Source: a virus
Taxonomy: Duplodnaviria; Caudoviricetes
Virus record (IMG/VR): IMGVR_UViG_3300002220_000279
Location: 2,162 to 66,161 of that record
Length of the DNA stretch: 64,000 nucleotides
Reading direction: 5' to 3' (one strand)
Each line of letters opens with the position of its first letter. The stretch's first letter is position 1. The position numbers and the translations under genes are program-made. The notes beneath the pieces were generated by a model. That model was not told where the DNA came from. It saw only the letters and a list, made by a program, of their open reading frames with translations, and did no database searches. Positions 34,672 through 64,000 of the stretch are shown here, piece by piece.

Positions 34672-34699
34672 TTGCTTTTTGGCAAAAATGGGTTATACT
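34672..34699 (+). promoter_or_regulatory. early promoter TTGCTT-N16-TATACT
   Basis: Followed by TATAAC..AAAGGAG RBS. Confidence 0.8.
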
Positions 34700-34730
34700 A
34701 TGGTTATAACATTTTTCAAAGGAGTTCGAT

Positions 34731-34967
34731 GTGACTAAAAAAGAAAACAAAAAGAATCTTAAGGGTAAACCAAGTTGGACAGTCGCTCCTAGTTGGGCGA
34801 GGTGGCTTTCACAGAACATTTATGGTCAATGGTGGTGGCACTCAAGAAAGCCGTCTATCATGACAATTACATGGATTAATCACGAGGGTAGTTATGATGA
34901 TAGTGGTTACAAATCCAACTCAGATAACTGGCGTGAATCTTTAGAATCAAGACCAAAAGTCAAATAA
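34731..34967 (+). CDS. hypothetical Trp-rich protein
   Basis: GTG start after GGAG; all Trp codons are TGG. Confidence 0.7.
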   Translation: MTKKENKKNLKGKPSWTVAPSWARWLSQNIYGQWWWHSRKPSIMTITWINHEGSYDDSGYKSNSDNWRESLESRPKVK

Positions 34968-34983
34968 ACTTGGGTATAGATTT

Positions 34984-35193
34984 ATGACTGTCAAACAAAT
35001 TAAAAGCATTTCGGATTCACTGCTAATACAAAAAATGCGTGATTTGGAAATGGATATTTACAATTACGAGACTGGTAATGGTCATCCTGAATTTGATTAC
35101 AAGAGTGGTAAAAAGGAATACGATAATCTTTATAAAGAATATAAAAGACGAAATATAGACGAATCAAAAACTAAATATGAATATGATTATTAA
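34984..35193 (+). CDS. hypothetical protein
   Basis: Packed ORF. Confidence 0.6.
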   Translation: MTVKQIKSISDSLLIQKMRDLEMDIYNYETGNGHPEFDYKSGKKEYDNLYKEYKRRNIDESKTKYEYDY

Positions 35194-35204
35194 GAGGTGT
35201 TAAC

Positions 35205-35558
35205 ATGCTACGCTACATAGTTAATCGTTCATCACTAACAAATATTCAACTGTCTGACATGGTTAGAAATTTTATTGATTGCTCTAATTGTATTTTTTCT
35301 TTTCTTTATAATGCACGTAATGAAGAAGAATATATTATCTTTTACAGTGATTTACAACAAGCGTTAAATGATGCAATTGCCCTTCCCAATGCAACAGTTT
35401 ACAATGTTAAGGATTCCAGAACAATAGAAAACATTACACAGCAATTGCGGCATGAGAGAGAATACGATGAGATGATGTCTAATATAGAAGAGGAACAAGC
35501 TAATCAGATGTTTTCTTACCATGAAGAAGATTATTGGTTTGACACGGTTAAGGATTAA
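35205..35558 (+). CDS. hypothetical protein
   Basis: GAGG RBS. Confidence 0.65.
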   Translation: MLRYIVNRSSLTNIQLSDMVRNFIDCSNCIFSFLYNARNEEEYIIFYSDLQQALNDAIALPNATVYNVKDSRTIENITQQLRHEREYDEMMSNIEEEQANQMFSYHEEDYWFDTVKD

Positions 35559-35585
35559 GATGATGGTTGGGGATAAAAAAAGTAT

Positions 35586-35613
35586 TTGCTTTTTGGTGAA
35601 AGTGGATTATACT
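35586..35613 (+). promoter_or_regulatory. early promoter TTGCTT-N16-TATACT
   Basis: Repeat of the motif with AAAGGAG RBS downstream. Confidence 0.8.
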
Positions 35614-35643
35614 GCAATTATAACGTTTTAAAAGGAGTTGAAT

Positions 35644-36054
35644 ATGAAGCCACTTAAAGATATTATCAGAGAAATTGATTTTACCCCTATGGTAGAGTTT
35701 CTCAATAATTCTTTAGACACATCTGTGCAAATTGAATTAGTAACGAGTAACAGAGAGTTTCTCTTTGACAATACAGGAATAACGCTAAAAAATGTTTCGC
35801 CAGTAAAGAAATTGGTGGATACGGGGCTGATTTAAAATACACATGTTAGTATTTTAGAGACACTCTGCGACAGAACTAATCAAACTATAATGTTCTTAAT
35901 TTCTATTTATTTAGAAGATTTTGGGACAAGGGAAAGGATTATTCGGATGTTTCCAGTCGAGATTCTCCTACCAAAAATACTGCCGTTTGGCGAAGAATAT
36001 ATTATTTATAACTACAAGAGAAAGACATGGAAATTCCCCCCGGAAAGAGGATAA
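35644..36054 (+). pseudogene. hypothetical gene interrupted by in-frame TAA at 35833
   Basis: Frame stays open 72 codons past the TAA to TAA at 36052. Confidence 0.5.
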
Positions 36055-36067
36055 AAGGAGTATTATT

Positions 36068-36397
36068 ATGAAAGATTTTGAGTATTATGGTAAAGGTGTT
36101 TTGCCATATCCGATAGCCCCAACCAAACCTACAACTGACAGACCTACTCATGAGTTTGTTGAGTTACTGGATAAATACGATTTGGATATGATAAGATTCA
36201 AGGAATCTATGGGAGAGTATCGTAAAGAAAAAGACAGGTTGGAAACGGAATTTAAGCATGATGCTCTCGAAAGTTGCGGAATATTGGGACATCCAAAAGC
36301 CGATGCGTGTTTTTCGTTAGCGTATTCGTATGGTCACTCTGCTGGATTTTCGGAAGTGTATTCGTATCTGTCAGATTTATCAGAGTTGCTAAAGTAA
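36068..36397 (+). CDS. hypothetical protein
   Basis: AAGGAG RBS before ATG 36068. Confidence 0.7.
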   Translation: MKDFEYYGKGVLPYPIAPTKPTTDRPTHEFVELLDKYDLDMIRFKESMGEYRKEKDRLETEFKHDALESCGILGHPKADACFSLAYSYGHSAGFSEVYSYLSDLSELLK

Positions 36398-36407
36398 GGG
36401 AGGTATA

Positions 36408-36647
36408 ATGGAAAAGAGTATTATAGCATCAAGTTGTGTATTTGTGGAAAGTCAAGACATTAAAATTCCGCCATCTCCATCCGAAGGACCACAATGGAAT
36501 TTCAGGGTGGAAGATTCAGAAGAACCATTAACGTATTATTATAACGTGGATATGGAAAACTTTACAGAAAATGAAATAATATCCAAAATAAGAGAAATTT
36601 TTGGTGAAAAAGCCACGATTATATCAAACGTCATAAAAAATAAATAA
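36408..36647 (+). CDS. hypothetical protein
   Basis: GGAGG RBS. Confidence 0.65.
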   Translation: MEKSIIASSCVFVESQDIKIPPSPSEGPQWNFRVEDSEEPLTYYYNVDMENFTENEIISKIREIFGEKATIISNVIKNK

Positions 36648-36662
36648 AAAGAGGATTAAACC

Positions 36663-36971
36663 ATGAATGGTAAAACAACTATAAATAATGGCGGCACAGG
36701 ACTTGCAGGAATTTTGGGCATTGTTTTTGTTATAATGAAACTTATGCATTGGGGCGATGTATCTAATTGGTCTTGGTGGTGGGTATTGAGCCCGTTTTGG
36801 ATACCTGCAGTTATTGTTATTTTGGTTTTTATGGGAATTTTTGCCTATTACTTCATAATCATGAAATGGCAAAACTTTAAATATCGCCATAACCCCAATT
36901 CATTGAGATATGTAGATGGTAAATTAATGATGAATAGCGTGTATAAGAAATCTAAAGAGGATAAACAATGA
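36663..36971 (+). CDS. small membrane protein; ends in TGA overlapping the next ATG
   Basis: LGIVFVIMKL...WSWWWVLSPFW two-TM pattern; ATGA overlap. Confidence 0.7.
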   Translation: MNGKTTINNGGTGLAGILGIVFVIMKLMHWGDVSNWSWWWVLSPFWIPAVIVILVFMGIFAYYFIIMKWQNFKYRHNPNSLRYVDGKLMMNSVYKKSKEDKQ

Positions 36972-37615
36972 GAGCAAAGAAGAATCATCCGGACATAGTT
37001 GAAATTTTTGACAAAGAAACTCTTGATAAATGGAAATCAGAACAACCAAAACGTGTCCGCAGGCTCAGATGTGTTCTTTGCGAAGAATTGTTCAATCCAG
37101 AAGAAACACAATTCGTTAATGCTATTGGCGGCAAAAAAGCGTGTTGGGGATGTTACGAGTACGCGGAAGAGCATGCCGAAAAACTTATAGAGTTTGACCC
37201 TAACTACGACAAAGAATATTACTATTTAGACTCAAAATTGGGAGATTTAACCAATATGGAACCGTCATTCCCAACACCAATCAAAAGCATTAGATACGTT
37301 AATACTGATGGGTGGAGAGGGTATACTACGTGGGACTTGATGGATGGGTATATTTCATTAACTGATGGATGGATAACTGGATATCCCGATTCCACCACCA
37401 CACGTAAAATGGCTATAGGTGAAATGTATGAGAAATTTGACTCTGATGAAATGAGACCACCAGTAACAATGTGGTGGATGTTTGGAACAACAAGCAACAT
37501 ATTCTCAACCAGCTGTAGTATTATTATCGCTGAGAGCGATAAAGAAAAGTTCTGTGAGTGGTTAAAAGACAAATTCGACTATACAACCGAAGATTTAGAT
37601 TATATGATGTCTTAA
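36968..37615 (+). CDS. hypothetical protein with CxxC pairs
   Basis: CVLC...CWGC. Confidence 0.7.
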   Translation: MRAKKNHPDIVEIFDKETLDKWKSEQPKRVRRLRCVLCEELFNPEETQFVNAIGGKKACWGCYEYAEEHAEKLIEFDPNYDKEYYYLDSKLGDLTNMEPSFPTPIKSIRYVNTDGWRGYTTWDLMDGYISLTDGWITGYPDSTTTRKMAIGEMYEKFDSDEMRPPVTMWWMFGTTSNIFSTSCSIIIAESDKEKFCEWLKDKFDYTTEDLDYMMS

Positions 37616-37624
37616 GGATTTATT

Positions 37625-37825
37625 ATGAAATACGTTTGGTGTAATCAGTGTAATAACTTTATATGGGCTAACATAAATGAAGACTATGAATTGGAATGTG
37701 CTTCATGTGGCTCTATCGACGTTGTAGCAAGCACATGTGTAATGTGCGGAGAATGTAAACCTCCGCACTCTATGACAATAGTTGATTTCTGTGGTCCAGT
37801 TTGTTCAAAATGTAATGGAGATTAA
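37625..37825 (+). CDS. small zinc-ribbon protein
   Basis: Four CxxC-type pairs. Confidence 0.6.
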   Translation: MKYVWCNQCNNFIWANINEDYELECASCGSIDVVASTCVMCGECKPPHSMTIVDFCGPVCSKCNGD

Positions 37826-37836
37826 GCACAAATAAT

Positions 37837-37864
37837 TTGCTTTTTTATAAAAATGGGTTATACT
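37837..37864 (+). promoter_or_regulatory. early promoter TTGCTT-N16-TATACT
   Basis: Upstream of the cca-like gene. Confidence 0.8.
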
Positions 37865-37892
37865 GTAGGTAAAAGAAGTTAAGGAGCTCTCG

Positions 37893-39342
37893 ATGGTAGT
37901 TAATAATTCTGTCATAACCAAAATCAAACAAGCCATACTCGGTACTCAGTTTGAGGATAAAACTTACGTAGCTGGTGGCTTTGTCAGGGACCTGATTATG
38001 GGTAAAGACAATAAGGATATTGATATCGTTGTAGAGCTCCCTAATGGTGGAGTAGAGTTGGCTAATTTCCTGCACCATGCGATAGGAGCATCAGAACCTA
38101 CTGTTTACAATAATAGTTGTGGAACTGCACAAGTAGTTATTGATGGAGAGAAGATAGAATTTGTTATGACTCGTAAAGAAAAATATGAGTTTGGCAACCG
38201 CACACCCCTTTGTGAATACGGAACTATTTATGATGATGTTAGACGTAGAGATTTCACAATCAATTCTATTCTATATAAGATTTCTACAGGGGAAATTATA
38301 GACCTGTTGGGTGGAAAGAGAGATATTGACTGCGGAAAAATCAGAACCAGCAGTTACCCTGATGAAACTTTCCAAGACGACCCGTTGAGAATTATGCGCG
38401 CAATACGATTTGCCACCAGACTAAACTTTGAAATCGAGGAAGAAACTTTTTATCAGATATCCAAGCACGTATTTGCGTTGAAAATGATTTCTGTTGAGCG
38501 CATAAGGGATGAATTTAATCAGATTATAATTGACCCCAATTTCAAGGTTGGCATGAATCTACTTCGCACATCGGGTATCCTTGATTTTATGTGCGTAGAA
38601 TTGAGTAATCTCTATAAATTGGGACAAGGGAAATATCATACTAAAGATGCGTGGGGTCATACTCTCGATGTAATGAAATTGACTAAACCAACACTGGAGC
38701 ACCGGATGGCTGCCTTGTTTCACGACAGTGGCAAACCACAAACTATTTCTAAATCTGAACTATGGTCACCAAATAGTTTCAGGGAAAATCTTTACCAATT
38801 TCCTGAATCGGTTTAGGTATAGCAATGATTTTATAAAAATGGTAGTACCTGCTGTTCAATTGCATATGAATTTTGTTGATGGAATGCTGGACAAAACAAT
38901 CCGCAAGAAAGTTAATCAGTATGGTAAAGATATTATGCTGTTTGCTTGCGATTTGGCTAAAGCCGATAGTAAAAGACCGGAAAGGCGGAGGATAGTTTAT
39001 GATATCCGCAGATTCATTGAAACAGATAATTTTACCATACAACCAAAGGTTATTCTGCCAGTGAACGGAAATGAACTGATGGAAAGATATAATCTGAAAC
39101 CAGGTCCAAAGATTGGAGCGATGGTAGAATATATTAAGGAATTGATGTTTGAAAATCCTAATATATCTAAAGAAGAAGTGTTTGAAAAAATAGATGAAAT
39201 AAACAGAACAAACCCAATTAAGTGGACAAGAATAAAAGATATAGAAAGGGAACTGGTAAAATCATCTACCGCCTATGTGCTAAATGGAGCAGTTCCGATA
39301 ATAACCATAGATTATATGGACGTTTTGAAAACTGACCAATAA
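37893..39342 (+). pseudogene. cca: CCA-adding tRNA nucleotidyltransferase (HD domain), frameshifted near 38760
   Basis: VAGGFVRD..DIDI, DVRRRDFTINS, DDPLRIMRAIRFA, ISVERIRDEF, HTKDAWGHT, LFHDSGKP in frame 1; YGHQIVS...HM...DLAKAD, PGPKIG in a different frame. Confidence 0.85.
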
Positions 39343-39363
39343 GTTGTTAAGGAGATTTTAATT

Positions 39364-39561
39364 ATGAAAACAATGATTAAGTATTTTTTGTGGGGAGTTT
39401 ATTGTATTGTATCAGCAATGATTGTTAATCACGTGTGGGTAACTTTCGACAGCGGAGCTATCCACATGACTGCTCAACATTATGTCGGTATTATGAACGG
39501 AGCGATGTGTATGGGATTGGTTACTATGATTGAAAATTACAGCAAAGGTAAACAAATATGA
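39364..39561 (+). CDS. small membrane protein; TGA stop overlapping the next ATG
   Basis: Two hydrophobic segments; ATGA overlap. Confidence 0.6.
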   Translation: MKTMIKYFLWGVYCIVSAMIVNHVWVTFDSGAIHMTAQHYVGIMNGAMCMGLVTMIENYSKGKQI

Positions 39562-39794
39562 GTAATGAAAAAGAAAGAATCTTCAAAATTTTAAATAACT
39601 GTCTGGCTTTTAACTACGAATTGACCTAATCTGTTCAAAGAATTATAATAGATTACATTAAAGCCTACTTGGGGGATAGAGTTGTCAAGTGTTTGTTTAT
39701 TACATCCAAAATAACAGGACATCCTCATTTGTGGGTTGTATTAGACACTGAGTCAATGCACATTAATTTCCAATTGAGTCCTTATACTATGTAG
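39558..39794 (+). pseudogene. small gene interrupted by in-frame TAA at 39627
   Basis: ATGA-coupled start; 54 open codons after the TAA to TAG at 39792. Confidence 0.45.
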
Positions 39795-39805
39795 AGGGGG
39801 TATAA

Positions 39806-40795
39806 ATGAACGATATGGAACTAATAGTAGACAATTACTTACTATATAAAATTATAACAGGTTCTCATCTTTATGGCACAAATACCGAAAACTCAGATAA
39901 TGATTATTCGGGGGTATTTCTTGAGCCATTTGAATATATTGCTAGTCCGTTTAAAAATATTGAAGAAATCAATTTATCTGTCCCTAATAAAGACGTTAGT
40001 GGCAAGAATACTTTCCTAGCTGTAGATGTTAAATATTACGGTTTGAAGCGTTTTATAAAATTGGTTTCGCAGTGCAATCCGAATATCATTGAGTTTTTGT
40101 TTGTACCAGACAATAAAATCTTGTATTTATCCAATGACTTTAAATCAATTCTGGATAATCGTGAGTTGTTTCTAACTCAAGAAATAGCAAGAAGATTTAT
40201 GGGGTATGCCTTTGAACAAGAAAAGAAAATGTATATAAGGTCAGAAAATTTTACGTTAATCCATCAGGCTTGGAAAAGTCTCAAAGAAGAATACCCTAAT
40301 TTGCCGCAGAATACCCCCATAATGAAAACAAAAACTGCAGACAAATATTTGGAATCTACTAGATTCTTACATCAGCACAATCCTGATAATGCGGAGTACT
40401 TGTACAAATGTGGTGATTTGCAATTCGGAACAACTTTGCACATAAAAAAGGTTATGAAAATGTTGTCTGAAAGAATACAGAAAGCATCGCACAGGACCGA
40501 TATGATATTGCATAAGGGATATGATTATAAGTTTGCCAGTCACGTTGTTAGACTGCTTGGTGAGGGATATCAACTAATGACAGAACATACGATAACATTT
40601 CCAATAATTAATGTTGATGATGTTATAGATATTAAGCGGGGGTTGTATACTATTGACAGGGTAAAAGAAATTATTGATAATTGGAAAGAAAAGTTTAGAT
40701 ATGCGGAAGAGCGTTGTGATTTACCGCCTAAAGGCAGTAATTTGAATAAAATAGAACAACTGACTTGGAAAATACAGCGGAATTGGTATGAATAA
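39806..40795 (+). CDS. DNA polymerase beta-superfamily nucleotidyltransferase (RlaP/NrdC.11-like)
   Basis: ITGSHLYGTNTENSDNDYSGVF, CNPNIIEFLF, GYDYKFASHVVRLL. Confidence 0.8.
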   Translation: MNDMELIVDNYLLYKIITGSHLYGTNTENSDNDYSGVFLEPFEYIASPFKNIEEINLSVPNKDVSGKNTFLAVDVKYYGLKRFIKLVSQCNPNIIEFLFVPDNKILYLSNDFKSILDNRELFLTQEIARRFMGYAFEQEKKMYIRSENFTLIHQAWKSLKEEYPNLPQNTPIMKTKTADKYLESTRFLHQHNPDNAEYLYKCGDLQFGTTLHIKKVMKMLSERIQKASHRTDMILHKGYDYKFASHVVRLLGEGYQLMTEHTITFPIINVDDVIDIKRGLYTIDRVKEIIDNWKEKFRYAEERCDLPPKGSNLNKIEQLTWKIQRNWYE

Positions 40796-46828: not shown

Positions 46829-47505
46829 ATGGCATATTTACGATTATATTATAGTAATTGGTATGCATTCTGTTCAAACATAGAAAAGAATAGAAAAAAA
46901 TATGCCAAAGATATGCTGGAAATATGGTATCCATATCACGAGAACGCACTATCTATAACTTATGAACAATCACTTAGTATCACACCTGATAATATAAGGG
47001 AACACTTTAAAATTCCGATTCCTGACAGTGATATAAAAGAACTGTTTAACGCTATACATCGTTTTCAAGAGTGTACATTAAGAGATGCCGGGTTATCAAA
47101 CAAGCGTATTTTAATGCCAAAAAAATTACGGGAACGCAGAGATATGGACAGTTGGGATGATAGCAGATGGGTAGAAGAGCATATATGTGTATTTGTAAAG
47201 AATTTGAAGACCAACATACTATCCACAAACACCCTAATTGGGTAATAACTTATCATGATGATGGATACGATGAATTTCCGTATGTAAAAAATCGTCTTTA
47301 TGTTGCTCACATAAGCGAAAGAAAGATAAAATCATGGGAATTTGATTACCCCGAAGCATTAAATCTGAATTTGCAAACTCTTATTAACAAACTTGAAGAA
47401 CATGGCAATTATTCAGATGAAGAATATGAAAATGTTTACGATTGTGTAAAACAATTTATAAAAGATGTACAGGAAAGATATCCCGAATTAAAAAGGAAAC
47501 TATGA
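46829..47505 (+). pseudogene. hypothetical gene with a probable 1-bp frameshift near 47200; ends in TGA overlapping the next ATG
   Basis: Second frame lacks an RBS-linked start; GTAAAGAA would read V-K-E if one A were restored. Confidence 0.45.
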
Positions 47506-48819: not shown

Positions 48820-50028
48820 ATGGAAAAAAATAATTATCTGTTCACTAGTGAAGCAGTATCACATGGTCATCCTGATAAAATATGCGACCAAATATCTGAT
48901 TCTATTCTTGATGCCTATTTGGAACAAGATTCCAATAGCAGGGTGGCAATCGAAACCCTCGTTACTAAAAACAAAATAGTGGTTGCTGGAGAGATTAGTT
49001 CGTCAGCAAAGGTTAATGTCAAAAAGGTAATCAGAAACACAGTAAAATCAATTGGATATGATAGAAAAGAATATGGTTTTTGGCATAAATCCAAGATTTA
49101 CAATTTTATTCATAAGCAAACTCCCGAATTGCAGAATAATGCCGATACAGATAACGCAGGTGACCAGGGAATTATGTTTGGATATGCTTGCCGGGAAACT
49201 GATGATTATATGCCAATAGCATCATCATTAGCTAATTATATCTTGTATATGATACACTATGTTGACAGAAATGGATATATAAAAAAACGTATCCTTTACC
49301 CCGATGCGAAATGTCAGGTTACTATTGAATATTGTGATGGAAAACCACAAAAGATTAATAACATCTTGTTGTCGGTCAGTCACGCTAAATTAATAAGTTC
49401 AGATTTTTGTACGTATGGGTCATTCTGGGATGACCTAAAGCATATGATAAGATATTATGCCAAAGAGTTTGTAAAAAATAATTGCTCACTATATCCAGAA
49501 TTAGCAACAGAGCCATTTGATATTATTATCAACCCTGCCGGCAATTGGAACAATTTCGGTCCCGCTGCGGATTCCGGAGTTACTGGCAGAAAAATAGTAA
49601 TTGATGCATACGGTGGATGCGCTCCTGTCGGCGGTGGAGCGTTTAGCGGAAAGGATGGGACAAAAGTTGATAGGACTGCCGCTTATATGGCTAGGCATAT
49701 AGCAAAAAATATAGTTCATAACGGTATAGCAGACTCCTGTTTGGTTCAGTTCGCGTATATTATCGGTAAGCAATTTCCCATATCTATTAATGTTTTTTGT
49801 AATAATCCAAAATACCCTGAAAAGCAAATTGTTGAAATGATTGAAAGTAATTTCAATCTTTCCGTATCGTGTATGGTAACTTATTTAGGCATGCACGACA
49901 GTAATCACGCATTTAACAGTGTTTATTGTCATTTTGGTTTGAGCGCTACCCCAATGGGAGATGACGATATACGACCGTGGGAAAAATTGATAGAGTTGAT
50001 GCCAAACCCAGTTGCGAAAGAGGATTAG
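48820..50028 (+). CDS. metK: S-adenosylmethionine synthetase
   Basis: FTSEAVSHGHPDKICDQISD, AGDQGIMFGYA, YPDAKCQVT, DSGVTGRKIVID.YGG, GGGAFSGKD.TKVDR. Confidence 0.95.
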   Translation: MEKNNYLFTSEAVSHGHPDKICDQISDSILDAYLEQDSNSRVAIETLVTKNKIVVAGEISSSAKVNVKKVIRNTVKSIGYDRKEYGFWHKSKIYNFIHKQTPELQNNADTDNAGDQGIMFGYACRETDDYMPIASSLANYILYMIHYVDRNGYIKKRILYPDAKCQVTIEYCDGKPQKINNILLSVSHAKLISSDFCTYGSFWDDLKHMIRYYAKEFVKNNCSLYPELATEPFDIIINPAGNWNNFGPAADSGVTGRKIVIDAYGGCAPVGGGAFSGKDGTKVDRTAAYMARHIAKNIVHNGIADSCLVQFAYIIGKQFPISINVFCNNPKYPEKQIVEMIESNFNLSVSCMVTYLGMHDSNHAFNSVYCHFGLSATPMGDDDIRPWEKLIELMPNPVAKED

Positions 50029-50264: not shown

Positions 50265-50798
50265 ATGGAAAAGAATATATCAGCTAGTGAGTTTCAAAAA
50301 CGATATGGACACTTAAAAACTCTACGTAGCTGCGCAAAAACCCCATCACAGGGAGCGAAAGTGTCCAAATACCATAATGTATCAGGATGGTGGACAAACA
50401 ACGTTAAAACTCATTATATGCACTCTATGTTAGAAAGTAATTTTGCGTGGTTTTTAGAATTTCTATTAGAAAAAGAAAAAATAAAGGAATGGATATATGA
50501 ACCAAAGCCAGCGTTTACATTCCCCACAAGGGCGAATAATACATATTTACCGGACTTCAAGGTATGGACCGAAAATGATGAAATCGTTATTTATGAAGTG
50601 AAAGGATATTTAGACAGTAGAAGTAAAATAAAGCTTAACCGTATGGCAAAATATTACCCAGATATAAAAATACAAATTATAAACAGTAAGGTAATGAAAA
50701 TAATTGAACTGCAATTCAAATCATTGATAAAAAATTGGGATAAACCGTTGTTATCCAAAGAGGAGTTAAATGGAATTAAAGAGGGTTCTGAGCAATAA
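50265..50798 (+). CDS. PD-(D/E)XK nuclease (DUF1064-like)
   Basis: SMLE, YLPDF, YEVKG. Confidence 0.75.
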   Translation: MEKNISASEFQKRYGHLKTLRSCAKTPSQGAKVSKYHNVSGWWTNNVKTHYMHSMLESNFAWFLEFLLEKEKIKEWIYEPKPAFTFPTRANNTYLPDFKVWTENDEIVIYEVKGYLDSRSKIKLNRMAKYYPDIKIQIINSKVMKIIELQFKSLIKNWDKPLLSKEELNGIKEGSEQ

Positions 50799-51009
50799 AT
50801 CGCTAAATGCTGTTGGATATTATCCATTGTCTGATTGTGATTTGTTGTGTTTTACTGGCAACTGTCCGCTTTACAAATACAATTTAGAGAGTTGTAATGA
50901 ATGCCCATTTAAATCAGAGTATGGGAATGATTATTTCCAAATGGGAGAATTCTACGATAAACCGATTAAGGAGTCTGTAGAAAAAATATTGAGAGAAAGA
51001 ATAAAGTGA
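50770..51009 (+). CDS. small Cys-rich protein; TGA stop overlapping the next GTG
   Basis: GTGA overlap. Confidence 0.55.
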   Translation: MELKRVLSNKSLNAVGYYPLSDCDLLCFTGNCPLYKYNLESCNECPFKSEYGNDYFQMGEFYDKPIKESVEKILRERIK

Positions 51010-52439
51010 AAGTTGGAAAATACGTAGAGGATATGTGCCATCCGCACAGTAAAAATCGTCGAAAAGCTCTCGCAGATGCAAAAGCATTTTACTCTGCTGA
51101 CTATGGTCCAAATATAGATGGTCCTCCAGAATCAAAACACGTAAAATCAGAAATTGCTACAAAAAATTCATTAGAATATATTGCTAATATTTTATTTGAA
51201 TTTGAGGAATTACCTAACTTTTCGGTACTGCGAGGTGGCATAGATGGGTTATATTTTGGCATGGATACCTCGCTATTAGATAAATATTTTTCACAATTAA
51301 TATTTCACTCTCACAGCAACAGAGAAGAGCAATCTAAAATAGGATTTAACAATCCCACAGGTTCTCATCACCCAAAAAATTCATTTCATATATACTCTTT
51401 TGAAAAGTCGTGTATGTCTATTGACAGTTTCGTAAAACATTGCATACCGATGTTTAAAGAAAATCCATTTAAGTGTAACATGATTATAAAACCGTCTATA
51501 GAAATTCCCGGAGCTCCATCAAATTATGGAGAATATGGACAGATTTGCTTTTTATTCTCAGATACAATAAATAATCTGTATATTGGTGGGTATTTCTATA
51601 TTTACGAAGGAGAATGTAATAGTGCGACTATATCAAGCGCTGTAGGAGAGCGTAGCGATTATAACTCACAGTTTATAAAAAAAATAGGCAATTGCATGGC
51701 TGAGTACAGCAAGCACGAATCAAAAGAAAAATACTGTATGGTTTCCCTTGTAAATAAATCTATGCAAGGATATAATTTTATCAGAGTAGATATATCCGCT
51801 AGTCTAGAACCGTTTCAAAATTTAGATTTACATTACCCTAATAAATCAAAAGAGAAATTCAGTGTATTTTACAAAAATATTGTGAAAAGAATGAGTGAAT
51901 CTACAAAAGGATTGTATATTTTTTACGGGTCACCAGGCACTGGCAAAACTTTTATGATTAGGCACTTGATGAATGATGTTCAAGAGATAAACGAAAATAA
52001 AGAGTTTATTATTGTATCGCATGATTTGTTAGGGGAGCTAGCTAAACCAGAATTTATAGGCTCAATCCTTAACTATGTGTCAGGGGGAAAAGAGATAATT
52101 CTTTTGTGTGAGGATGCAGAACAAGCAATAAAAAAGCGGGATAAAACCAGTCACAACAAAAGTGTAGTATCAACACTTCTTAATGTATCTGATGGAGTGC
52201 TAAACGATATTCTTAAATTTCAAGTTATTTTAACATTTAATACTAAAATAGACAATATAGATGAAGCATTATTAAGAGCCGGCAGATTACAAGCTATAAA
52301 AGAATTTAGTCCGTTGTCTTTAAAACATGCTAATACACTAATCAAACATTTAGGCATAGAACGCCTTGATGCTGTGGATGGAATGTCTCTATCCGAAATT
52401 TATACAGCCAAGAGTGCAAACGAAATTTTGCGGCACTAA
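51006..52439 (+). CDS. AAA+ ATPase with N-terminal extension
   Basis: FYGSPGTGKT, LLCEDAE, LLNVSDG, DEALLRAGRL. Confidence 0.88.
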   Translation: MKVGKYVEDMCHPHSKNRRKALADAKAFYSADYGPNIDGPPESKHVKSEIATKNSLEYIANILFEFEELPNFSVLRGGIDGLYFGMDTSLLDKYFSQLIFHSHSNREEQSKIGFNNPTGSHHPKNSFHIYSFEKSCMSIDSFVKHCIPMFKENPFKCNMIIKPSIEIPGAPSNYGEYGQICFLFSDTINNLYIGGYFYIYEGECNSATISSAVGERSDYNSQFIKKIGNCMAEYSKHESKEKYCMVSLVNKSMQGYNFIRVDISASLEPFQNLDLHYPNKSKEKFSVFYKNIVKRMSESTKGLYIFYGSPGTGKTFMIRHLMNDVQEINENKEFIIVSHDLLGELAKPEFIGSILNYVSGGKEIILLCEDAEQAIKKRDKTSHNKSVVSTLLNVSDGVLNDILKFQVILTFNTKIDNIDEALLRAGRLQAIKEFSPLSLKHANTLIKHLGIERLDAVDGMSLSEIYTAKSANEILRH

Positions 52440-52775: not shown

Positions 52776-55700
52776 GTGGCAGATAAACAATTAAGAATCG
52801 TGCATTTTTCAGATTATCATTTACACAATAATAGTAGACAAAAAGAGTTTGCAATTGTATTCAATAATTTTTTGGATAAGTGTAAAGAAATACAACCAGA
52901 TTACATAATTTTTCCCGGTGATTGGAATCACGAAAACACTATGTTATCTACAGAAAGTATCGTATTCACCAAATGGGCGTTTAAACAGTTGTCCGATATT
53001 TGTCCTGTTATCGTATCAAGGGGCAATCACGACTCGGCTCTCAACAATAATGACAAAATCACTACGTTAGAATCCATTTTAACTGATTTTACAGATACAG
53101 TGCACCCAATATATGCATTCTATCATTCAGCTTGGCAGGAGTTCCCAGAATTCGATTTGGGTGTATTTGATTATATGGATACTCCAGAGATATTCCAAGA
53201 ATTAGCAGACAAACCTAAATCAGATAAAATTTCTATCGCTATGTATCACGGAATAGTGGGACAAGCTAGGGTATCTAAAGAGAACGAAATAAAATTAAAA
53301 AACAGTCACCTGAACATGATGCCGTATTTTTCAAATTATAGTTTTACAATGCTTGGGGATATACACCAAATGCAATACCTGAATGAGGATAAAACTATTG
53401 CTTATTCGGGAAGTATGTTACAGAATAATTTCAATGATTCTATGGACAAAGGATTCCTGCTATGGGAAATAAACAGTGACCAAACTTTTAGCGTTCAATT
53501 TATTGCAGTAGAAAATCCTTATAAAAGAATAGAAGTAGAATTAAATGATTTGGACCAAATCTTGTCTTATATTCGGGAAAAGAATCCTACTAAGAAAAGC
53601 AGTGTAAAAGTTAAACTGGTTAACGTTCCTCTGCCTGATGAACAAAAAATAATACAGGCAATTTCTACAGAATTCGGTATAAAGCCGGGAATAGTTAACA
53701 CGAAACAGAAAGTGTCTACAGAGGACTTACAACTATCTGACAGTAATAAAGATTCTTTTTATGACGTTGATTATCAAAACAAGATGCTGACAGAATATGC
53801 TAATCTGAATGAAATTAAGGTCCCCATTGAGGATATTGTCGAAATGAACACCCGATTCAATCAACAGCTCAAGTTTGAATACGGGTTTGTTAATTGGACA
53901 ATTAATCGATTAGAGTTCCAAAACTTGTTTAAATACGGTGGGGACAATATAAATAAAATTGATTTTTCGCAAATTTACGGTATTGTTGGAATCCCTGGCA
54001 ACTCTGCTATCGGGAAAAGTAGTATAGTATATATTATTTCTTGGTTATTGTTTGACAAATGCAATCTTTATGACATAGCCATAAGCGACATCCTTAATTC
54101 AAAGTCTAAAGAGGGTTATGGGGAAATAGAATTTACTATTGATGGTAGAACATTTGTTATAAAGAAAGATTTAAAGCGTTCCGGCAAAACTGTAAAATCA
54201 ACAATGATGTTTACTCAGATAATGGAAGATGGAACAAGAAAAAATGAAAATGAAGATAACTCTAATCAAACTAAAGCCAAAATACAAAAGCTGATTGGGA
54301 CATATGATGATTTTATTACCACCAATTTGTCTTTACAGGGTAAATCAGCAAATTTCATAGAGTCCAACAATTCTGAAAAGAAACGCATTGTGGCGCACTT
54401 TGTAGGTTTAAAGATATTTGATGACCTTGCGGCAATTGCAGACAAGCATTATAAAGAGTTGGGGGAAAGAATATTCGGACCCACTGATGTAGATTATTAT
54501 GCCAGTCAAATAGTGCAACTGAAACAAATGATATTCTCTGCAGAAGAGGGTAAGTCCGAAATGCTGTCTGATATAGAAAGTTTGGAAAAAAGCATAGAGG
54601 AATACAAACAATATCTCGAAGATGAGCAAAAGAACCTTAAACCCCTCTTGCTAAACCCCAACTTTAATAAAGATGTTGCCAACCAAAAGAAAGAGAGATT
54701 AGAAAAAGAGATTGCTGATATTGTAGAAAAATCGTTATTGCTTACTGGTCAAAGAAAAGAACTATATTGCGAAAGTGGGGTATATCCTACAGAACAAGAA
54801 TTGAGGAATCAGTTTAAACCCCTGTTATTGGCATCAGATTTCAATAAAGAAAAATCAGATGCTGAGCGGACCAGACTACAGCAAGAAAATAATTCAATCA
54901 GTGAACAAATTGAAATCAATAATTCAAAAATAGTAGAAGTTGAGAAAACTGAGGAAACGTATCGTCAAGAACTTAAAACTAAGGAAGAAAAAGTTCGTGT
55001 TAACTCTGAAACTCTCAACAAAATAGAACTCAAATTGTCACAACTAAAATCTAAAATTGATGACGTTAACTCTTTGCTATCCAAATCTGTAGATGGTCAA
55101 ATAACCAAACATGACGTTTGTGATAATTGTGGATTGTATTCATGGTTTTCCAAAAATCAAAGTGAAGTTGGTGAACATCAGAGCAATATAGAATATCTAA
55201 ACGAATCTAAACAAAAACTATTAGATGAAAATAAAACTCTCAATGAAGAGATATCGGTAATTCGCAAAAGTCTAAATACTATCAGCGAAAATAAAACACA
55301 CCAGTTTAACATAGACAGGTTGAATAATACAAAGCAATCTAATCAAATGAAATTAGAAAAAATTGAGCGTGACTTGAATTTAGACAAGGATAATACGGAA
55401 ATAGTCAAGCACAATGCCGTTATTCAAGAAAGATTAGATATATTTGCACATAATAATGAAATAGATAATCAACAAAGAGAATTGCAGAATGAACATAAAT
55501 CAAAAGGTATCGAGTTAACAAATATCGAATCTGATTTAAATAAATATGCTGATAACGAAAAGATTGTAGAACTCAATAAAGAAACAAATGAGAAAATAAG
55601 TCAATACAAATCTACTATCAGCGAGAAACAAAGTAAGGTAGCAGAATTAAGGGGAACTCTTAAAGCAAACGAAACTATCATAGAGAGCAATCAAAAGCAG

Positions 55701-56246
55701 ATTCACAACTATGAGATTAAGATTAAAGAGTTGGAAGAGTTCCAGAAAAAGTATGAATTGATTGATGCTTATAAAGAACTCATCAAATCTGACGGATTGC
55801 CAGAGTTTGTTTTAGAGAAAAAATTAGAGCCACTTATAGATGAAATTAATTCACTACTTACATTAACTGATTACCAAATTAACATTATTCTTGAAAAAGA
55901 GGGAAGGAAAACACAGAAAATTAATATCACCTATAAAGAGGGAGATAATGACTGGATGTCCATTAACCTTGCTTCTGGAGCTGAGAGAGCTACACTCAGT
56001 CTTATATTCCGCATAGCAATGCTGAAAATGAGTTGTTTGGGTCACTGCTCAACATTATTTATTGATGAGTTGTTTTCTCCCCTTGACGCGGACAGATTGG
56101 AATCTGTAGAGGATATGTTGCAAATAATTAAAGATTATTTTACTCATATTATATCCATTAGCCACATAGAAAGTATTAAGAGGTGTGTTGATAACACTAT
56201 TAACATTGCGAATAACGGAATGTATAGTTATGTAGTAGAGGACTAA
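52776..56246 (+). CDS. sbcCD: SbcD/Mre11 nuclease - SbcC/Rad50 ATPase fusion (gp47-gp46-like), 1156 aa
   Basis: SDYH, GDW, GNHD, MYHG, GDIH; then GNSAIGKS Walker A, coiled coil with CDNC hook, ASGAE signature, LFIDELF Walker B. Confidence 0.92.
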   Translation: MADKQLRIVHFSDYHLHNNSRQKEFAIVFNNFLDKCKEIQPDYIIFPGDWNHENTMLSTESIVFTKWAFKQLSDICPVIVSRGNHDSALNNNDKITTLESILTDFTDTVHPIYAFYHSAWQEFPEFDLGVFDYMDTPEIFQELADKPKSDKISIAMYHGIVGQARVSKENEIKLKNSHLNMMPYFSNYSFTMLGDIHQMQYLNEDKTIAYSGSMLQNNFNDSMDKGFLLWEINSDQTFSVQFIAVENPYKRIEVELNDLDQILSYIREKNPTKKSSVKVKLVNVPLPDEQKIIQAISTEFGIKPGIVNTKQKVSTEDLQLSDSNKDSFYDVDYQNKMLTEYANLNEIKVPIEDIVEMNTRFNQQLKFEYGFVNWTINRLEFQNLFKYGGDNINKIDFSQIYGIVGIPGNSAIGKSSIVYIISWLLFDKCNLYDIAISDILNSKSKEGYGEIEFTIDGRTFVIKKDLKRSGKTVKSTMMFTQIMEDGTRKNENEDNSNQTKAKIQKLIGTYDDFITTNLSLQGKSANFIESNNSEKKRIVAHFVGLKIFDDLAAIADKHYKELGERIFGPTDVDYYASQIVQLKQMIFSAEEGKSEMLSDIESLEKSIEEYKQYLEDEQKNLKPLLLNPNFNKDVANQKKERLEKEIADIVEKSLLLTGQRKELYCESGVYPTEQELRNQFKPLLLASDFNKEKSDAERTRLQQENNSISEQIEINNSKIVEVEKTEETYRQELKTKEEKVRVNSETLNKIELKLSQLKSKIDDVNSLLSKSVDGQITKHDVCDNCGLYSWFSKNQSEVGEHQSNIEYLNESKQKLLDENKTLNEEISVIRKSLNTISENKTHQFNIDRLNNTKQSNQMKLEKIERDLNLDKDNTEIVKHNAVIQERLDIFAHNNEIDNQQRELQNEHKSKGIELTNIESDLNKYADNEKIVELNKETNEKISQYKSTISEKQSKVAELRGTLKANETIIESNQKQIHNYEIKIKELEEFQKKYELIDAYKELIKSDGLPEFVLEKKLEPLIDEINSLLTLTDYQINIILEKEGRKTQKINITYKEGDNDWMSINLASGAERATLSLIFRIAMLKMSCLGHCSTLFIDELFSPLDADRLESVEDMLQIIKDYFTHIISISHIESIKRCVDNTINIANNGMYSYVVED

Positions 56247-58730: not shown

Positions 58731-58742
58731 GAGAGGTTTATA

Positions 58743-59364
58743 ATGACAATTAAATTGTTTTCTGTCGTAATTTATGGTGATTACGAATCACAAGAAGAGA
58801 TTGAGTTTACTTCACGTGCATTAGCAGAGGAATTCTGCGATTGTTACAATATTGATTATTCACAAATCACAGAACATATTACAACTAATGAAGAGATTAT
58901 GCAAAAAGCAATAAACACTCTTATTGATAAGGTTAGCGAATTAGAAAGAGAGGTTAAAGATTTGCGGTCACGTAGCTACACACATTGCGTAGGTCCATAT
59001 GTTTGATTCTAAATCTTGTATATATGAACAATGTGGATTTGTTATAATTCGCAGAGCTCCTAAAAATCATGATAGTTATCCTGGTATTCTGTTCTACATT
59101 GATAATATGTGGAGAGACACTACTACAAAGAATGTAAAGGGTTTTATAAGCACCCAACCCACATGGTGGACAGACGATATCGAAAAAGCATATGTTTATC
59201 AATATGAAGGTGCTGCCAAAAATTGCCTAAAGCAAATTGAGGATTTACAGATGAGAAGATGGTCATATACTCAGCTGAATCCGATGCCGTGGGTTACATC
59301 TTTAACCAAAGCAATAAAACTTCGCGACCACGTTATTAAAAGGCATCATAATAAGAAAAAATAG
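58743..59364 (+). other. two hypothetical genes (58743-59006 ending in TGA; 58999-59364)
   Basis: Overlapping packed ORFs. Confidence 0.6.
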
Positions 59365-59367
59365 TAT

Positions 59368-59834: not shown

Positions 59835-61303
59835 TGGATTCTAAAATGAAACAGAAAAAGAGCGAATTAGTTGAGCTGACCGTTGAAAGAATGGCTTTAA
59901 TTGGAAAAACGGCTCTCCAATTAGCAATTGATTCTTTTAAAGAGACTCCTCCCAATATTGGAGACACCGCTACAGGTGGAGACAGGTTTAATCCAGAGTA
60001 TTGGACATTGCTGGCAATTTATAAGTTAGATTTTGAAAAACTGGGTAATAAAAAACAGAAACCTACATCAGACAAAATTTTAAAAAACTAAAGGAGTATG
60101 TTATGGAAAGAAAGAATTTGTTTTTAAGGGATGACGTTACTTTTTCGGAAGCAATTCTGGAAATGATGAGGTTAAAACTTCGTGGGTTTGATGCTTGTGC
60201 TATCAGACCGATGGCTAACGGTTTAGAAGAATTCATTTATTGGATTAATCCTAATGAAAATGGCGATTATCCCACCAACTCAGAAATTTGTAAGGGTAGT
60301 GCTACCTTTTCTTTACCCCCAACGGAACATCGCCATCCTATCGACTTTGCGGACATATCTGCCACAGACTTTAATTTGTGGGCAAAGGTTACTCTTTATG
60401 CCGAAGACGGAGAACTATCAAACGACAAAGCTCCTTATGTTTTGGGTGGATGTTATTTTCACGGCAAGGCTGAGCAGACGATAAGAGAGAACGGAACCCA
60501 TGTGGCTGATATTATTTGCACCGATGTAAAACCAGAAAAGTGGCTTGATGGCATCTATCATTGGCGTGTATTTTCTGAAACAAAGAATGCAAATGTCACT
60601 TGGGGAACGCTTTTTGTATGGCACGATGTAAACAATCATATGCATGGTTTGGCTGTGGAAACTGGCGATGAAGAATCTATTCAATACGCTATAGAATGTT
60701 ACAACAACAAGAAAACAACCCTTTAAGAAACTGGAGTTATGATTATGACAGTTAAAGAATATATTGAGATTTTGAGTGAGTATCATCCCGATACATTAGT
60801 AATTCAAGAAAGCGAAGCTTGCGGGTTAGTGGATGCCACTTTCCCCCAATTGGTATCGGTTTGTTATAACCTTGACGGGAATATCAATAAATGTAACTAT
60901 AAAGTCCATACGCTAATATCAGAAGCAATGGATAGATATAGTCAGTTTGTTGCAGACAGAAAGGGGAATATACTGATTACATTTGATGAATATCTTAAAT
61001 CCTATAATAGTTACACAATTAACGCGATAATAATCTCATAGGAGATAAAAAATGAAAGAATTAGTTATTAAACTCAATCTATCTTTTGATGATGCGTTCT
61101 GTGGATTGGACAGCGGAGATTACGATAGAATAAAAAGAGATGGATGGAAAAATTATATATATTGTTGTGAAGGAAATTATTGTTGGGGTTTTAGACCAGA
61201 AATCCCTAATTACGATGATGAATATAAATTTAACCAATCTGATAAAGATGCCAATGATTGGATTGGTATTAAAGTTGAGATTAAACAGGAATATGGTGAT
61301 TAA
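59834..61303 (+). other. four hypothetical genes (59834-60091, 60103-60726, 60739-61041, 61052-61303)
   Basis: GGAG RBS before most. Confidence 0.65.
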
Positions 61304-61304
61304 T

Positions 61305-61850
61305 ATGGGCGGCAAAAGTAAGCAGTATGTTAAAATTGTTGATACCTATGGATATCAATACGCTTCTCGTATCACAGGAAAACGTGGAGCGGTTGTTGTT
61401 GTTCCAATATATAGAGATTATGAAACTCAAGAATTAAAGCTCCAACTTATCTTAAGTGAGCGACCTACTTTTGATAAACCAATATTGGAATTTCCGGCTG
61501 GATTATTGGATGATGATTCGTTATCTATTGAGGATACTGTGCTAAAAGAATTGAGAGAAGAAACTGGTTGGACTGGCGAAATTCATTCCGTATTGGACCC
61601 AGCTCCCAGCTCTGCCGGAATAACGGATGAAATACTTTATATCGCTACAGTATTCTTAACGGAAAAACACGAGCCGTCTCATCAAGGTAATGAAAAAATA
61701 AAAGTATTGCCGTTGATGTCTTTTGTGGATTTTATTAAGTATATCAATGAGGAAGATGGTAAAATTTTGGTTTCAAGCAGATTGGTTACGTATATGTTAG
61801 GGTTTACTATTGGATATTCATTTTCAAAATTTGGATTAATGGAGTTTTAA
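61305..61850 (+). CDS. Nudix hydrolase (ADP-ribose pyrophosphatase-like)
   Basis: LEFPAGLLD...VLKELREETGW Nudix box; SSAGITDE. Confidence 0.88.
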   Translation: MGGKSKQYVKIVDTYGYQYASRITGKRGAVVVVPIYRDYETQELKLQLILSERPTFDKPILEFPAGLLDDDSLSIEDTVLKELREETGWTGEIHSVLDPAPSSAGITDEILYIATVFLTEKHEPSHQGNEKIKVLPLMSFVDFIKYINEEDGKILVSSRLVTYMLGFTIGYSFSKFGLMEF

Positions 61851-63882
61851 ATGAAAAGATTTATTATATGGTTATTTGGTATAAATAGTGGCGACCTTTG
61901 TAAAACTAATTATTGTGATAAAGAACATCACCTTACTCGGAAAATATCTCAACTTGAGAAAGAACTGCACGATGTAAGGATGCATATTATAACCCGGTTT
62001 GTTATGCATAAGGAACTCTCTAATGAAAATCAATAATAAAAAGATTGATAAACGATTCCCTGTATTTGAAAAACTAAATGCAGAAAATCTTCCATCTAGA
62101 GGTGGATATTATTATTATTTCAAACGGAGTGATGGACTTATTCATTATATACAGTGGTTTCCCGCCTTTTCTCTTAACTCTCAATTTATGAAAAAATACA
62201 AGTATTTTGCTGCCACGCCTCCGCACTTTCCTATTTGGGCGGAGATGGCTAGAAGAAAAGTTCGATTTCACTGCGATGAGTCTCCTCAATCTATAAAATT
62301 ATGGGGACTGTTTTATCCATCAGACGTTAAGAGTTTGGTTAAGAAAGGTTTGCTAATTACATCGGATGGCGAAAAAGAAATTCCCAAATGTATAACTTGG
62401 TATTACCCATCACCGGAAGCTTATGAAAAATATATTTTGCCGCTTATAAAAAAGTATACACTAAAAAATCTGACTTTTTTAGCCGGGTGGATATTCGAAT
62501 CTAATAAAGATTTTGATTAAAATCAAGGAGAAAAAATGAGTGCAAGAATGATTATTATTCTGATTGTATTAGCAATAATGACACCTTTCATTATTAGTTA
62601 TGCATTTTATTCCCTTACTCAAGATACCGTTACTGTTACTGTAACAAAGAGTGAGCGTGTAGTAAAAAGTTCACCAAATGGAGATGGTGGCTCTAATGTA
62701 TCAAGTAAATATCTTGTATTTTCTGAACAAGAGGTTTTAGAAAATACTGATTGCCTTTGGGCTTGGAAATGGGATAGCTCTGATTTTTATGCAAAGATTA
62801 AGCAGGATTCCACGTATACCTTTAAAGTGTATGGCTGGCGCGTACCATTTCTTTCATGGCACAGAAATATTGTGTCAATTGAAACAGTTGGGAAATAGGA
62901 TAATGTTTATTGATAACAGCAATATTGTTGCTTTTGGTGTATTCCAAGTTATTTTATCTGCGTATTACTCCTATTTGGGGCATAATGTGGATAACATATT
63001 TATAGAACTAAATGGTCAGGTAAAAATTAATTTTAGCTCTCCAGCTTATGGAGACGAGTCAGTTTACGTCTGTTCTGCATTGAAAAGCATCTCGCAAAAT
63101 GATTATTTATATGCAGAAAATAATCGCGGAGAATATATCAAAACTAAAATCAAGATAGATACTTTAGGGGAAAGAAATGACTACTCATATGCCACTAAAG
63201 AATTGGCAAGAATGACAAATTTCGCAATAGAAAGATTCTTGCGACCATACGTAATAGACAACATAAAAAAATATAAAAAGGGAGATACTAATGTATTATC
63301 TAACAAGTAAACACTTTAAATGTAAGTCCTGCACAAAATCCGTATTGTCAACCTTTACCAAAAAGGTAAAAAACACAACTATAACCAAAGAATGTATTTT
63401 TATGTATGGATGCCCACACGATTGTGCTGAGCCTAAAGATAAGGTTTATAAGACCAAAGATGGCGAAAAGAAATACAAGCGATTCTATGGGTATTCTCCT
63501 GACCCCAATAAGCAAGCATAAAGCGAGTTTAACGATGTTAAACAAAATAACTGATACGTTGCCTGTTCCAGAGGTTTCCAAAGAGGGAAATGATGTTTTT
63601 GTTGCCCGTTTAGAGAATAATATGGCTGTTATAAACTATATAACCGATGATGACGGCAATACACTTGTGCAAATAAGCACAATCATACAGGGAATTGACC
63701 CTAAAGACAATATACGGGACCGCAGATATACACAACAGATATTGTTTCCGCAGGGAATTTTGTGTCTTTATGATGCCTTGAAAGCATTTACTCATGAGAA
63801 TAGATTCTTTGAGGAATACAAAAAGCAGTTTGAGCAAGAAAAAGAATACCAAGAGAAAATGAAATCAGAACAAGGTAGATAA
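61851..63882 (+). other. six hypothetical genes (61851-62036, 62023-62520, 62536-62898 membrane-anchored, 62903-63310, 63291-63521, 63535-63882)
   Basis: Packed ORFs, TAA/TAG stops. Confidence 0.6.
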
Positions 63883-63888
63883 TAAATA

Positions 63889-64000
63889 ATGAGTGAAAAA
63901 AGTTTAATTGAAAAACACTTTTCTAAAGAACTCAAACAGATAAAGAGTATGACTCTTTCTAATATTGTGAGGACTGCACTTGAAAACGTTAGTGATGATT
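63889..64000 (+). CDS. 5' part of a gene running off the window
   Basis: ATG AGT GAA AAA..., open to the end. Confidence 0.5.
   Translation, partial: MSEKSLIEKHFSKELKQIKSMTLSNIVRTALENVSDD

Follow-up and report, generated by a model that had tools for sequence, protein, structure and literature searches.

Predicted recoding of TGA to tryptophan divides the genes of a T4-like phage of about 200 kb by transcription class

Does a bacteriophage assign two meanings to the codon TGA within one genome, and if so, along which line are its genes divided? The question is raised by a 64,000-nucleotide (nt) stretch of DNA, hereafter called the window, which comprises bases 2162-66161 of the linear, 66,161-bp IMG/VR virus record IMGVR_UViG_3300002220_000279 (CheckV completeness, 31%). 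The original prediction, made from the letters alone, held that TGA is a real stop in the early region, is absent from the replication genes, and encodes tryptophan (Trp) in late genes, the phage switching its meaning in mid-infection of a standard-code (code 11) host as a translational timer. As described below, the late genes read TGA as Trp, and genes with and without internal TGA are separated by transcription class, not by region. Genes were curated by means of a codon-usage score trained on long open reading frames (ORFs), and their identities were derived from Pfam and PHROG profile matches. The window encodes T4-like homologues of the gp20 portal, the gp23 major head protein, the gp21 protease, gp13, gp32, and UvsX (PF07230, PF07068, PF03420, PF26809, PF08804, and PF00154). 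Since a public contig of 212,068 bp also encodes identical copies of its portal fragment and S-adenosylmethionine (SAM) synthetase, the real genome has a size of about 200 kb, and the window is about one third of such a T4-like phage.

To begin with the gene counts, the early set consisted of 56 curated genes located between positions 34,731 and 63,882 (9,191 codons) in the non-structural early/auxiliary block on the plus strand (34672-64000). As originally described, all Trp codons of this block are TGG; the 56 genes contain 138 TGG codons and no internal in-frame TGA, and the other two frames hold 176 and 439 TGAs, i.e., 615 in total. In-frame TGAs of the block are present solely at positions 36969, 39559, 47503, 51007, and 59004, where the next TAA or TAG follows 1 to 10 codons further on; the remaining early genes have TAA or TAG as stops. 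The replication/recombination block (15864-22925, plus strand) was said to have about 23 Trp codons and to use TGA for neither purpose, and this was borne out: its eight genes contain 23 TGG and no TGA codons and end with seven TAA and one TAG. The same holds for the block with the genes for a sigma-like factor, a kinase, and a glycosyltransferase (28456-34604, plus strand), for which six genes with 29 TGG codons, no TGA, and exclusively TAA stops (6/6) were counted. A different picture emerged for the 19 late genes on the minus strand (one of them partial and located just beyond the left edge of the window), which possess 25 TGA and 56 TGG codons and have TAA or TAG as stops. Within the window, this late structural module (1-15268) contributes 10 genes with 17 in-frame TGAs, every end being TAA or TAG. 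Six further genes at 15.4-33.2 kb, all but one of them TGA-bearing, together contain 13 TGA and 24 TGG codons and likewise use TAA or TAG as stops. Overall, 15 genes of the window have 30 in-frame TGAs.

Expressed as the fraction of Trp codons that are TGA, the values are 0/138 for the early genes, 0/23 for the replication genes, and 0/29 for the genes at 28.4-34.6 kb, in contrast to 25/81 for the late genes and 13/37 for the other TGA-bearing group. Taken together, none of the 190 Trp codons of early, replication, and auxiliary genes is TGA, whereas the fraction is about 32% in late genes. The difference in TGA versus TGG usage is significant for late versus early genes (Fisher test, p = 1.7e-11) and for late versus replication genes (p = 0.0015). 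The split runs gene by gene and not by region, as genes with and without TGA are intermixed between 22.9 and 33.2 kb. Specifically, the TGA-bearing ones are rmlD (dTDP-4-dehydrorhamnose reductase; 22893-23768, minus strand) with two in-frame TGAs, the gene for a 718-amino-acid (aa) ART-PolyVal-domain protein (PF18760; 24239-26395, plus strand) with seven TGA and 11 TGG codons, rmlB (dTDP-glucose 4,6-dehydratase; 26454-28451, plus strand) with TGA at codons 28 and 662, and a gene for a phage ribosomal protein bS21 (PHROG S21 match; 32968-33159, plus strand) with TGA at codon 52 followed by 11 further codons. Directly upstream of the replication block, the first gene past the divergent intergenic region (15421-15864, plus strand; 147 aa) has TGA in frame at codon 41, a feature conserved in three phages; no Pfam or PHROG match was obtained for this protein, leaving its family unassigned.

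For comparison, two related phages were used: L003, which together with its extensions forms a 179.5-kb JGI contig with a portal protein 88% identical to that of the window, and L007, a 19-kb sequence with 69% identity. As proposed originally, TGA is read as Trp in the late genes, and three independent lines of sequence evidence agree on this. TGA and TGG are exchanged for one another at homologous positions, in both directions, in at least 10 late genes of the window compared with L003 and L007; the alignments continue unbroken through the TGAs of the window, and the corresponding columns of the relatives contain TGG or TGA. The profile match of the portal protein spans the TGA at codon 393. 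In alignments with proteins of solved structure, both TGAs of RmlB are matched with Trp residues of PDB entry 2hun_A, and the TGA at codon 149 of RmlD is matched with a conserved Trp of PDB entries 3sc6 and 1vl0. As the GxxGxxG nucleotide-binding motif of RmlB is located upstream of the first TGA, an intact enzyme requires this codon to be read. In the case of bS21, the tail beyond the TGA differs from that of the relative by conservative changes only (RNKMKYENAK versus KNKIKYDNLK), which shows that the tail is translated. Furthermore, coding potential is positive for every inter-TGA segment of the late module, for both segments of the gene at 15421-15864, and for all eight segments of the ART gene. 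A reading of TGA as glycine (code 25), as in phages of Gracilibacteria and Absconditabacteria, was rejected on all three lines, every informative alignment pairing TGA with Trp. Decoding must be efficient, because single ORFs contain seven to eight TGAs in the window and 22 and 26 in the relative.

How are the two sets of genes controlled? A sigma-70-like early promoter motif (TTGCTT, a spacer of about 16 nt, and TATAYT) occurs in nine copies, compared with 0.02 expected, at positions 30324 (30324-30351), 34672, 35586, 37837, 40801, 41203, 44660, 45342, and 57879. All nine matches are intergenic, lie on the plus strand, and precede a start codon with an AAGGAG site by about 30 nt. When each plus-strand gene was assigned to the nearest upstream promoter motif, internal TGAs were found in 0/50 genes behind sigma-70-like promoters versus 16/46 of all others (p = 1.5e-6); a comparison by promoter class had been suggested at the outset. 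The units behind these promoters contain 129 TGG codons and no TGA, and they include four of the five TGA-terminated genes. The TGA split consequently follows the transcription class, not the region. The presence of the sigma-like factor (30379-31041) in one of the early units is consistent with a cascade in which transcription passes from host to phage control. Motif scans of the window did not yield a confident definition of a late promoter. The T4 late promoter TATAAATA was not enriched in the window (18 matches versus 14 expected). The motif YTATATAR is located 5' of several late genes and was considered as a marker of the late class; it was dropped as proof, as it showed no overall enrichment (19 versus 14) and is also present 5' of TGA-free genes. 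Another motif, GGAGTTATT, is located 10 to 50 nt 5' of five start codons, at window positions 15364, 26412, 48542, 52734, and 56971, and three further copies are intragenic; it may represent an additional class of promoter or an extended form of the ribosome-binding site.

The five early genes that end with TGA were all confirmed; they lie on the plus strand and are designated A to E here. The TGA of gene A (36663-36971; TGA at 36969-36971) overlaps the ATG at 36968, and reading on adds EQRRIIRT. Gene B (39364-39561, 65 aa; TGA at 39559-39561) had been listed as a further stop-start overlap; the ATG at 39558 opens a 23-aa ORF only, and no credible gene is present in the next 240 nt or so. Gene C (47167-47505; TGA at 47503-47505) forms an ATGA overlap with the next gene, and three residues are added on reading through; gene D (50770-51009; TGA at 51007-51009) overlaps the AAA ATPase gene at a GTGA. 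In gene E (58743-59006; TGA at 59004-59006), one codon separates the TGA from a TAA. The number of credible stop-start overlaps is therefore three (ATGA at 36968, ATGA at 47502, and GTGA at 51006) instead of the four originally given. All five TGAs are located within the last 11 codons of the open frames, a zone that comprises about 7% of the codons, so that five of five would occur by chance with a probability of about 1e-6; that is, they are placed like stops. Homologues were found for genes A and D only; none was present for genes C and E in phage records. Gene A encodes a small membrane protein of phrog_1374, a family (window positions 36663-36998) with an invariant WSWWWV core and, in a subset, a C-terminal S[KR][WF]QQR[LI][DE]E motif. 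The orthologues of gene D in L008 and L009 likewise end with a TGA inside an ATGA overlap, beyond which the tails are dissimilar. The strongest argument for TGA as a stop in early genes is the total lack of in-frame TGA within them. Within the window, the five TGAs are candidate stops; better evidence for TGA as a stop came from the 179.5-kb relative, 12 of whose 68 early genes (code-11 calls) are TGA-terminated. These ends include three consecutive ATGA overlaps as well as TGATAG and TGATAA tandem stops, and in one early gene, translation past the TGA would run across the next gene for 43 codons whose composition is non-coding. In this relative, TGA does end early genes.

The division of genes was found in the relatives as well. 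For a comparison of gene classes, 79 of the 179.5 kb of the larger relative were assembled from overlapping loci and displayed the same split, with 70 TGA and 104 TGG codons in late-strand genes. TGA-bearing orthologues common to both phages are rmlB, rmlD, the ART gene (55-65% identical, with eight TGAs in the relative), bS21, and the 147-aa gene; the replication, nucleotide-metabolism, and small early genes of the relative are otherwise without internal TGA. The orthologues of the replication genes are TGA-free in both L003 and L007, and the major head protein gene has 11 TGG and no TGA codons in all three phages. Both the reading of TGA as Trp and the split by gene and promoter class, evident in the window, thus recur in its relatives as judged from sequence. 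The relative's contig also contains, at 57278-68045 (L024 and L026), two adjacent giant ART-PolyVal ORFs of 1888 and 1705 aa if TGA is read as Trp, with 22 and 26 TGAs, which are split into dozens of pieces by the source annotation. L007 has an IS605-type OrfB/TnpB gene (Cas12f1-like_TNB) within its replication module (L007:4260-5354), an insertion that is lacking in the window and in L003. Searches for close relatives of the window gave none in the phage collection by DNA, none in IMG/VR by portal or ART protein, none in metagenome contigs by MetK, and none in GTDB genomes by major head protein; an alignment of IMG/VR major head proteins gave L007 only.

Which sequence of events would produce this pattern? 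The best explanation, which we hold to be probable, is a T4-like phage of about 200 kb in a host that most likely uses the standard code, with early genes free of TGA and with TGA read as Trp later through phage-supplied decoding. Genes behind the host-type sigma-70-like promoters would be translated by the unaltered host ribosome, which would account both for their lack of internal TGA and for their ability to end in TGA. Genes expressed later, i.e., the structural module, the rhamnose enzymes, the ART-domain protein, and bS21, would have gathered TGA at Trp positions, and the phage would encode the TGA decoder in a portion of its genome that the 66-kb record does not cover. The code-11 host and the change of TGA reading in mid-infection put forward in the original prediction agree with this explanation, the early and replication genes being readable in the standard code; we infer the host's code, the identity of the decoder, and a shift in how TGA is read as infection proceeds. 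Shine-Dalgarno cores precede about 70% of the genes, compared with 9% of random 17-mers, and this frequency together with the sigma-70-like promoters suggests a Shine-Dalgarno-dependent, standard-code bacterial host. By analogy to the similar-sized Jade phages (see below), a Bacillota-like host is plausible.

Several observations weigh against this explanation. In the 66-kb record, which is 31% complete and thus carries little weight on this point, no suppressor tRNA was detected, neither ARAGORN nor Rfam searches at gathering threshold and at E = 1 giving any tRNA, and there was no match to release factor 1 (RF1; PF00472) or to tryptophanyl-tRNA synthetase (TrpRS) or class-Ib synthetases (PF00579). 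In the relative, positions 6,081 to 104,409 were covered (98 kb, 55% of the contig), and no tRNA(UCA) was present there despite 14 tRNAs. The base following sense TGA did not differ from that following TGG (p = 0.42, pooled), which gives no sign of competition by release factor 2. Finally, distant homologues of gene A have a C-terminal motif, S[KR][WF]QQR, whose Trp or Phe is aligned with the TGA. This motif is present in 11 of 122 such homologues, with Trp at the aromatic site in two of them, and the window sequence continues with E-Q-R, so that this TGA may be either a live Trp codon or the result of a recent TGG-to-TGA change. A Trp together with the short extension, which the original prediction had named as evidence against itself, was thus seen in homologues of one of the five genes (1/5).

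In its full form, the original prediction has three adaptive tiers that together act as a translational timer: TGA is a working stop in early genes, is avoided in both roles by the replication genes as a buffer while its meaning changes, and is Trp in late genes. The raw pattern is present in the counts, the replication genes are TGA-free in three phages, and TGA does end early genes in the relative; nevertheless, we consider this scheme unlikely. The TGA-stop rate of 9% already predicts none among eight replication genes, so that the three-part partition was not upheld: TGA stops occur in 5/57 early versus 0/8 replication genes (Fisher test, p = 1.0) or, when the next block is added, versus 0/14 (p = 0.58). 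Also against the scheme are the alignment of the TGA at 36969 with a conserved aromatic residue and the conserved sense TGA in the gene adjoining the replication block (15421-15864). A passive account fits equally well, in which an A+T-rich genome retains TGG-to-TGA changes only where it can tolerate them, and a translational timer cannot be distinguished from such a build-up.

Two further explanations dispense with phage-supplied decoding. If the host itself read TGA as Trp (code 4, e.g., a mollicute-like bacterium), the split would reflect codon preference or separate origins of the gene sets; this would be in line with the lack of a phage suppressor tRNA in the parts examined and with the fact that one related contig was gene-called with TGA as Trp by its source. 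Such a host is very improbable, however, given 0/190 TGA among early, replication, and auxiliary Trp codons versus about 32% in late genes, the 11 TGG codons without a single TGA in the major head protein gene of three phages, and the strong use of Shine-Dalgarno sequences and -35/-10 promoters. The relative's early ATGA overlaps, tandem TGA-TAA/TAG stops, and 43-codon non-coding read-on point in the same direction. Alternatively, there might be no code change at all, the late TGAs being leaky stops that are read weakly by ordinary tRNA-Trp and limit the dose of low-copy proteins. The distribution of TGA among virion genes of the window is suggestive in this respect, as the most abundant virion proteins (the major head protein, a 451-aa protein encoded at 6180-7535, and the gp13-like protein) are TGA-free, while the portal, the protease, and the enzymes carry TGA. 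Yet read-through of a few percent per site cannot complete ORFs with seven to eight TGAs, as in the window, or with 22 to 26, as in the relative, whose sheath and gp13 genes are also TGA-bearing, and we regard leaky stops, too, as most unlikely.

If decoding is supplied by the phage, by which molecule might it be achieved? The 98 kb of the relative encode 14 canonical tRNAs in an early or middle block, i.e., tRNAs for Met, Phe, Tyr, Ala, Pro, Gln, Leu, Trp(CCA), Cys, Arg, Lys, Asp, Glu, and Gly. The tRNA-Trp(CCA) (L030:7036-7109; JGI 3300076002) has G73, a 5-bp anticodon stem, C9 beside the U12-A23 pair, and C24, whereas position 9 is a purine in the other tRNAs of the relative's first cluster. 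E. coli tRNA-Trp gains the ability to read UGA through either of two classic changes located outside the anticodon, one of which is A9C, and C9 or A24 states are not rare in bacterial tRNA-Trp genes (PMC13092985). By analogy to the laboratory A9C and Hirsh-type mutants, the lineage might read UGA without a UCA suppressor, by means of its own tRNA-Trp(CCA) with C9; with its CCA anticodon unchanged, this tRNA would remain a substrate of the host TrpRS. We rate this route as rather unlikely and treat the C9-containing tRNA as a lead, not a finding, since it comes from a relative of whose contig 45% is unread. Scans for the exact pattern of this tRNA-Trp matched nothing, and a search for the window phage's close orthologue of a protein neighbouring the relative's tRNA region returned none.

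Three unusual RNAs were observed in the same survey. Two odd tRNA-like elements, both of which escape standard tRNA finders at default settings, were considered as suppressors and rejected, as neither has a UCA anticodon loop. In both, the acceptor and T arms are good; L031:3641-3722 (82 nt) has in addition a G3-U70 pair and a weak anticodon arm with the sequence CUACAAG, and L030:4202-4332 (131 nt) has a 59-nt extra arm. The third, a 70-nt RNA with a G3-U70 pair and an ACCA end (L031:3826-3895), matches only the tRNA-like domain of transfer-messenger RNA (tmRNA; Rfam RF00023, 61 bits), with 2 nt where the 306-nt mRNA-like part is expected. It could be a "mini-tmRNA" consisting of the tRNA-like domain alone, perhaps acting as an SmpB decoy.

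The remaining gene content of the window can be described briefly. The minus-strand late module includes the genes for the gp13-like protein (440-1615), the major head protein (4461-6149), the prohead protease (8943-9581), and the portal (9875-11926). On the plus strand, the replication block encodes a gp32-like single-stranded DNA-binding protein (18062-18949), RecA/UvsX (18963-20150), a 5'-3' exonuclease (20150-20992), and a DnaB helicase (20995-22383). RmlB is peculiar in that it aligns to solved dehydratases in two blocks, residues 4 to 184 and 518 to 662, which are separated by a 333-residue insertion (window positions 27006-28004); the RmlB protein of the relative has 329 aa and is devoid of this insertion. 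The mostly TGA-free block that surrounds bS21 comprises, besides the sigma-like factor, a 167-aa ORF, an exonuclease (28959-30314), a deoxynucleoside monophosphate kinase (31029-31628), a glycosyltransferase (31647-32879), and a 479-aa ORF, all on the plus strand. The early block, on the same strand, contains genes for a CCA-adding enzyme (37893-38816), an RlaP-type nucleotidyltransferase (39806-40795), SAM synthetase (48820-50028), the AAA ATPase (51006-52439), an SbcC-like protein (52776-56246; a 1156-aa ORF), and many small ORFs. Equipment for RNA repair and translation is plentiful in the lineage, with the CCA-adding enzyme, bS21, and SAM synthetase in the window and a T4 Rnl1-type RNA ligase and RtcB in the relative.

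How does the window compare with known cases of phage recoding? Recoding of TGA in late genes is a published pattern, and the window is a new example in a new lineage, not a new principle; the present picture of code switching in phages is left unchanged. It is a clean case in a T4-like jumbo phage, in which the recoded and unrecoded sets are tied to explicit promoter classes and in which recoding affects not virion genes alone but also enzymes of a sugar pathway and a ribosomal protein. Only the decoder holds wider promise: if a UCA tRNA were truly absent from the complete genome, tRNA-Trp(CCA) would become a candidate for a new route of codon switching. The tRNA-Trp of the relative, not of the window, resembles the UGA-reading tRNA-Trp(CCA) variants (Hirsh G24A, A9C, and a 4-bp anticodon stem; PMC13092985) in that its C9 and U12-A23 correspond to the A9C configuration, and it differs from them in its 5-bp anticodon stem and C24.

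With phages of code-4 hosts such as Mycoplasma and Spiroplasma, the window has the reading of TGA as Trp in common, but TGA would be expected throughout such genomes, whereas none of the 190 early and middle Trp codons is TGA here. A 2026 survey (PMC13037316) describes recoded jumbo phages with T4-type portals, which are similar with respect to a gp20-type portal broken by a recoded stop and to the concentration of recoding in hallmark genes; the example of that survey is TAG, and TGA is treated there as glycine, whereas TGA is read as Trp here. The crAss-like and Lak phages, which reassign TAG to glutamine, share the late-biased stop reassignment and the standard-code hosts (Yutin et al., PMC7886860; Peters et al., PMC9523058), but differ in stop codon, amino acid, and phage lineage; for TAG-to-glutamine recoding, metaproteomic proof is available (Peters et al., PMC9523058). 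The closest counterparts are the TGA-recoded phages of standard-code hosts reported by Borges et al. (bioRxiv 10.1101/2021.08.26.457843), which have recoded structural and lysis genes and standard-code replication genes. These authors found that TGA stops are lost before recoding arises, proposed a code switch during infection, and detected suppressor tRNAs in only 35% of TGA-recoded genomes, with RF1 and TrpRS as accessory genes in Jade phages. Like the Jade phages (about 200 kb, Firmicutes-infecting) and the Agate gut phages, the phage of the window has TGA as Trp in late genes, standard-code replication genes, rare TGA stops, and a predicted standard-code host, and with about 212 kb it belongs to the size class of Jade, a likeness in the features described. 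It differs from Jade and Agate in that no tRNA(UCA), TrpRS, or RF1 was seen in the 31%-complete record, in that nine explicit sigma-70-like promoters mark out its early class, and in that recoding also includes rhamnose enzymes and bS21.

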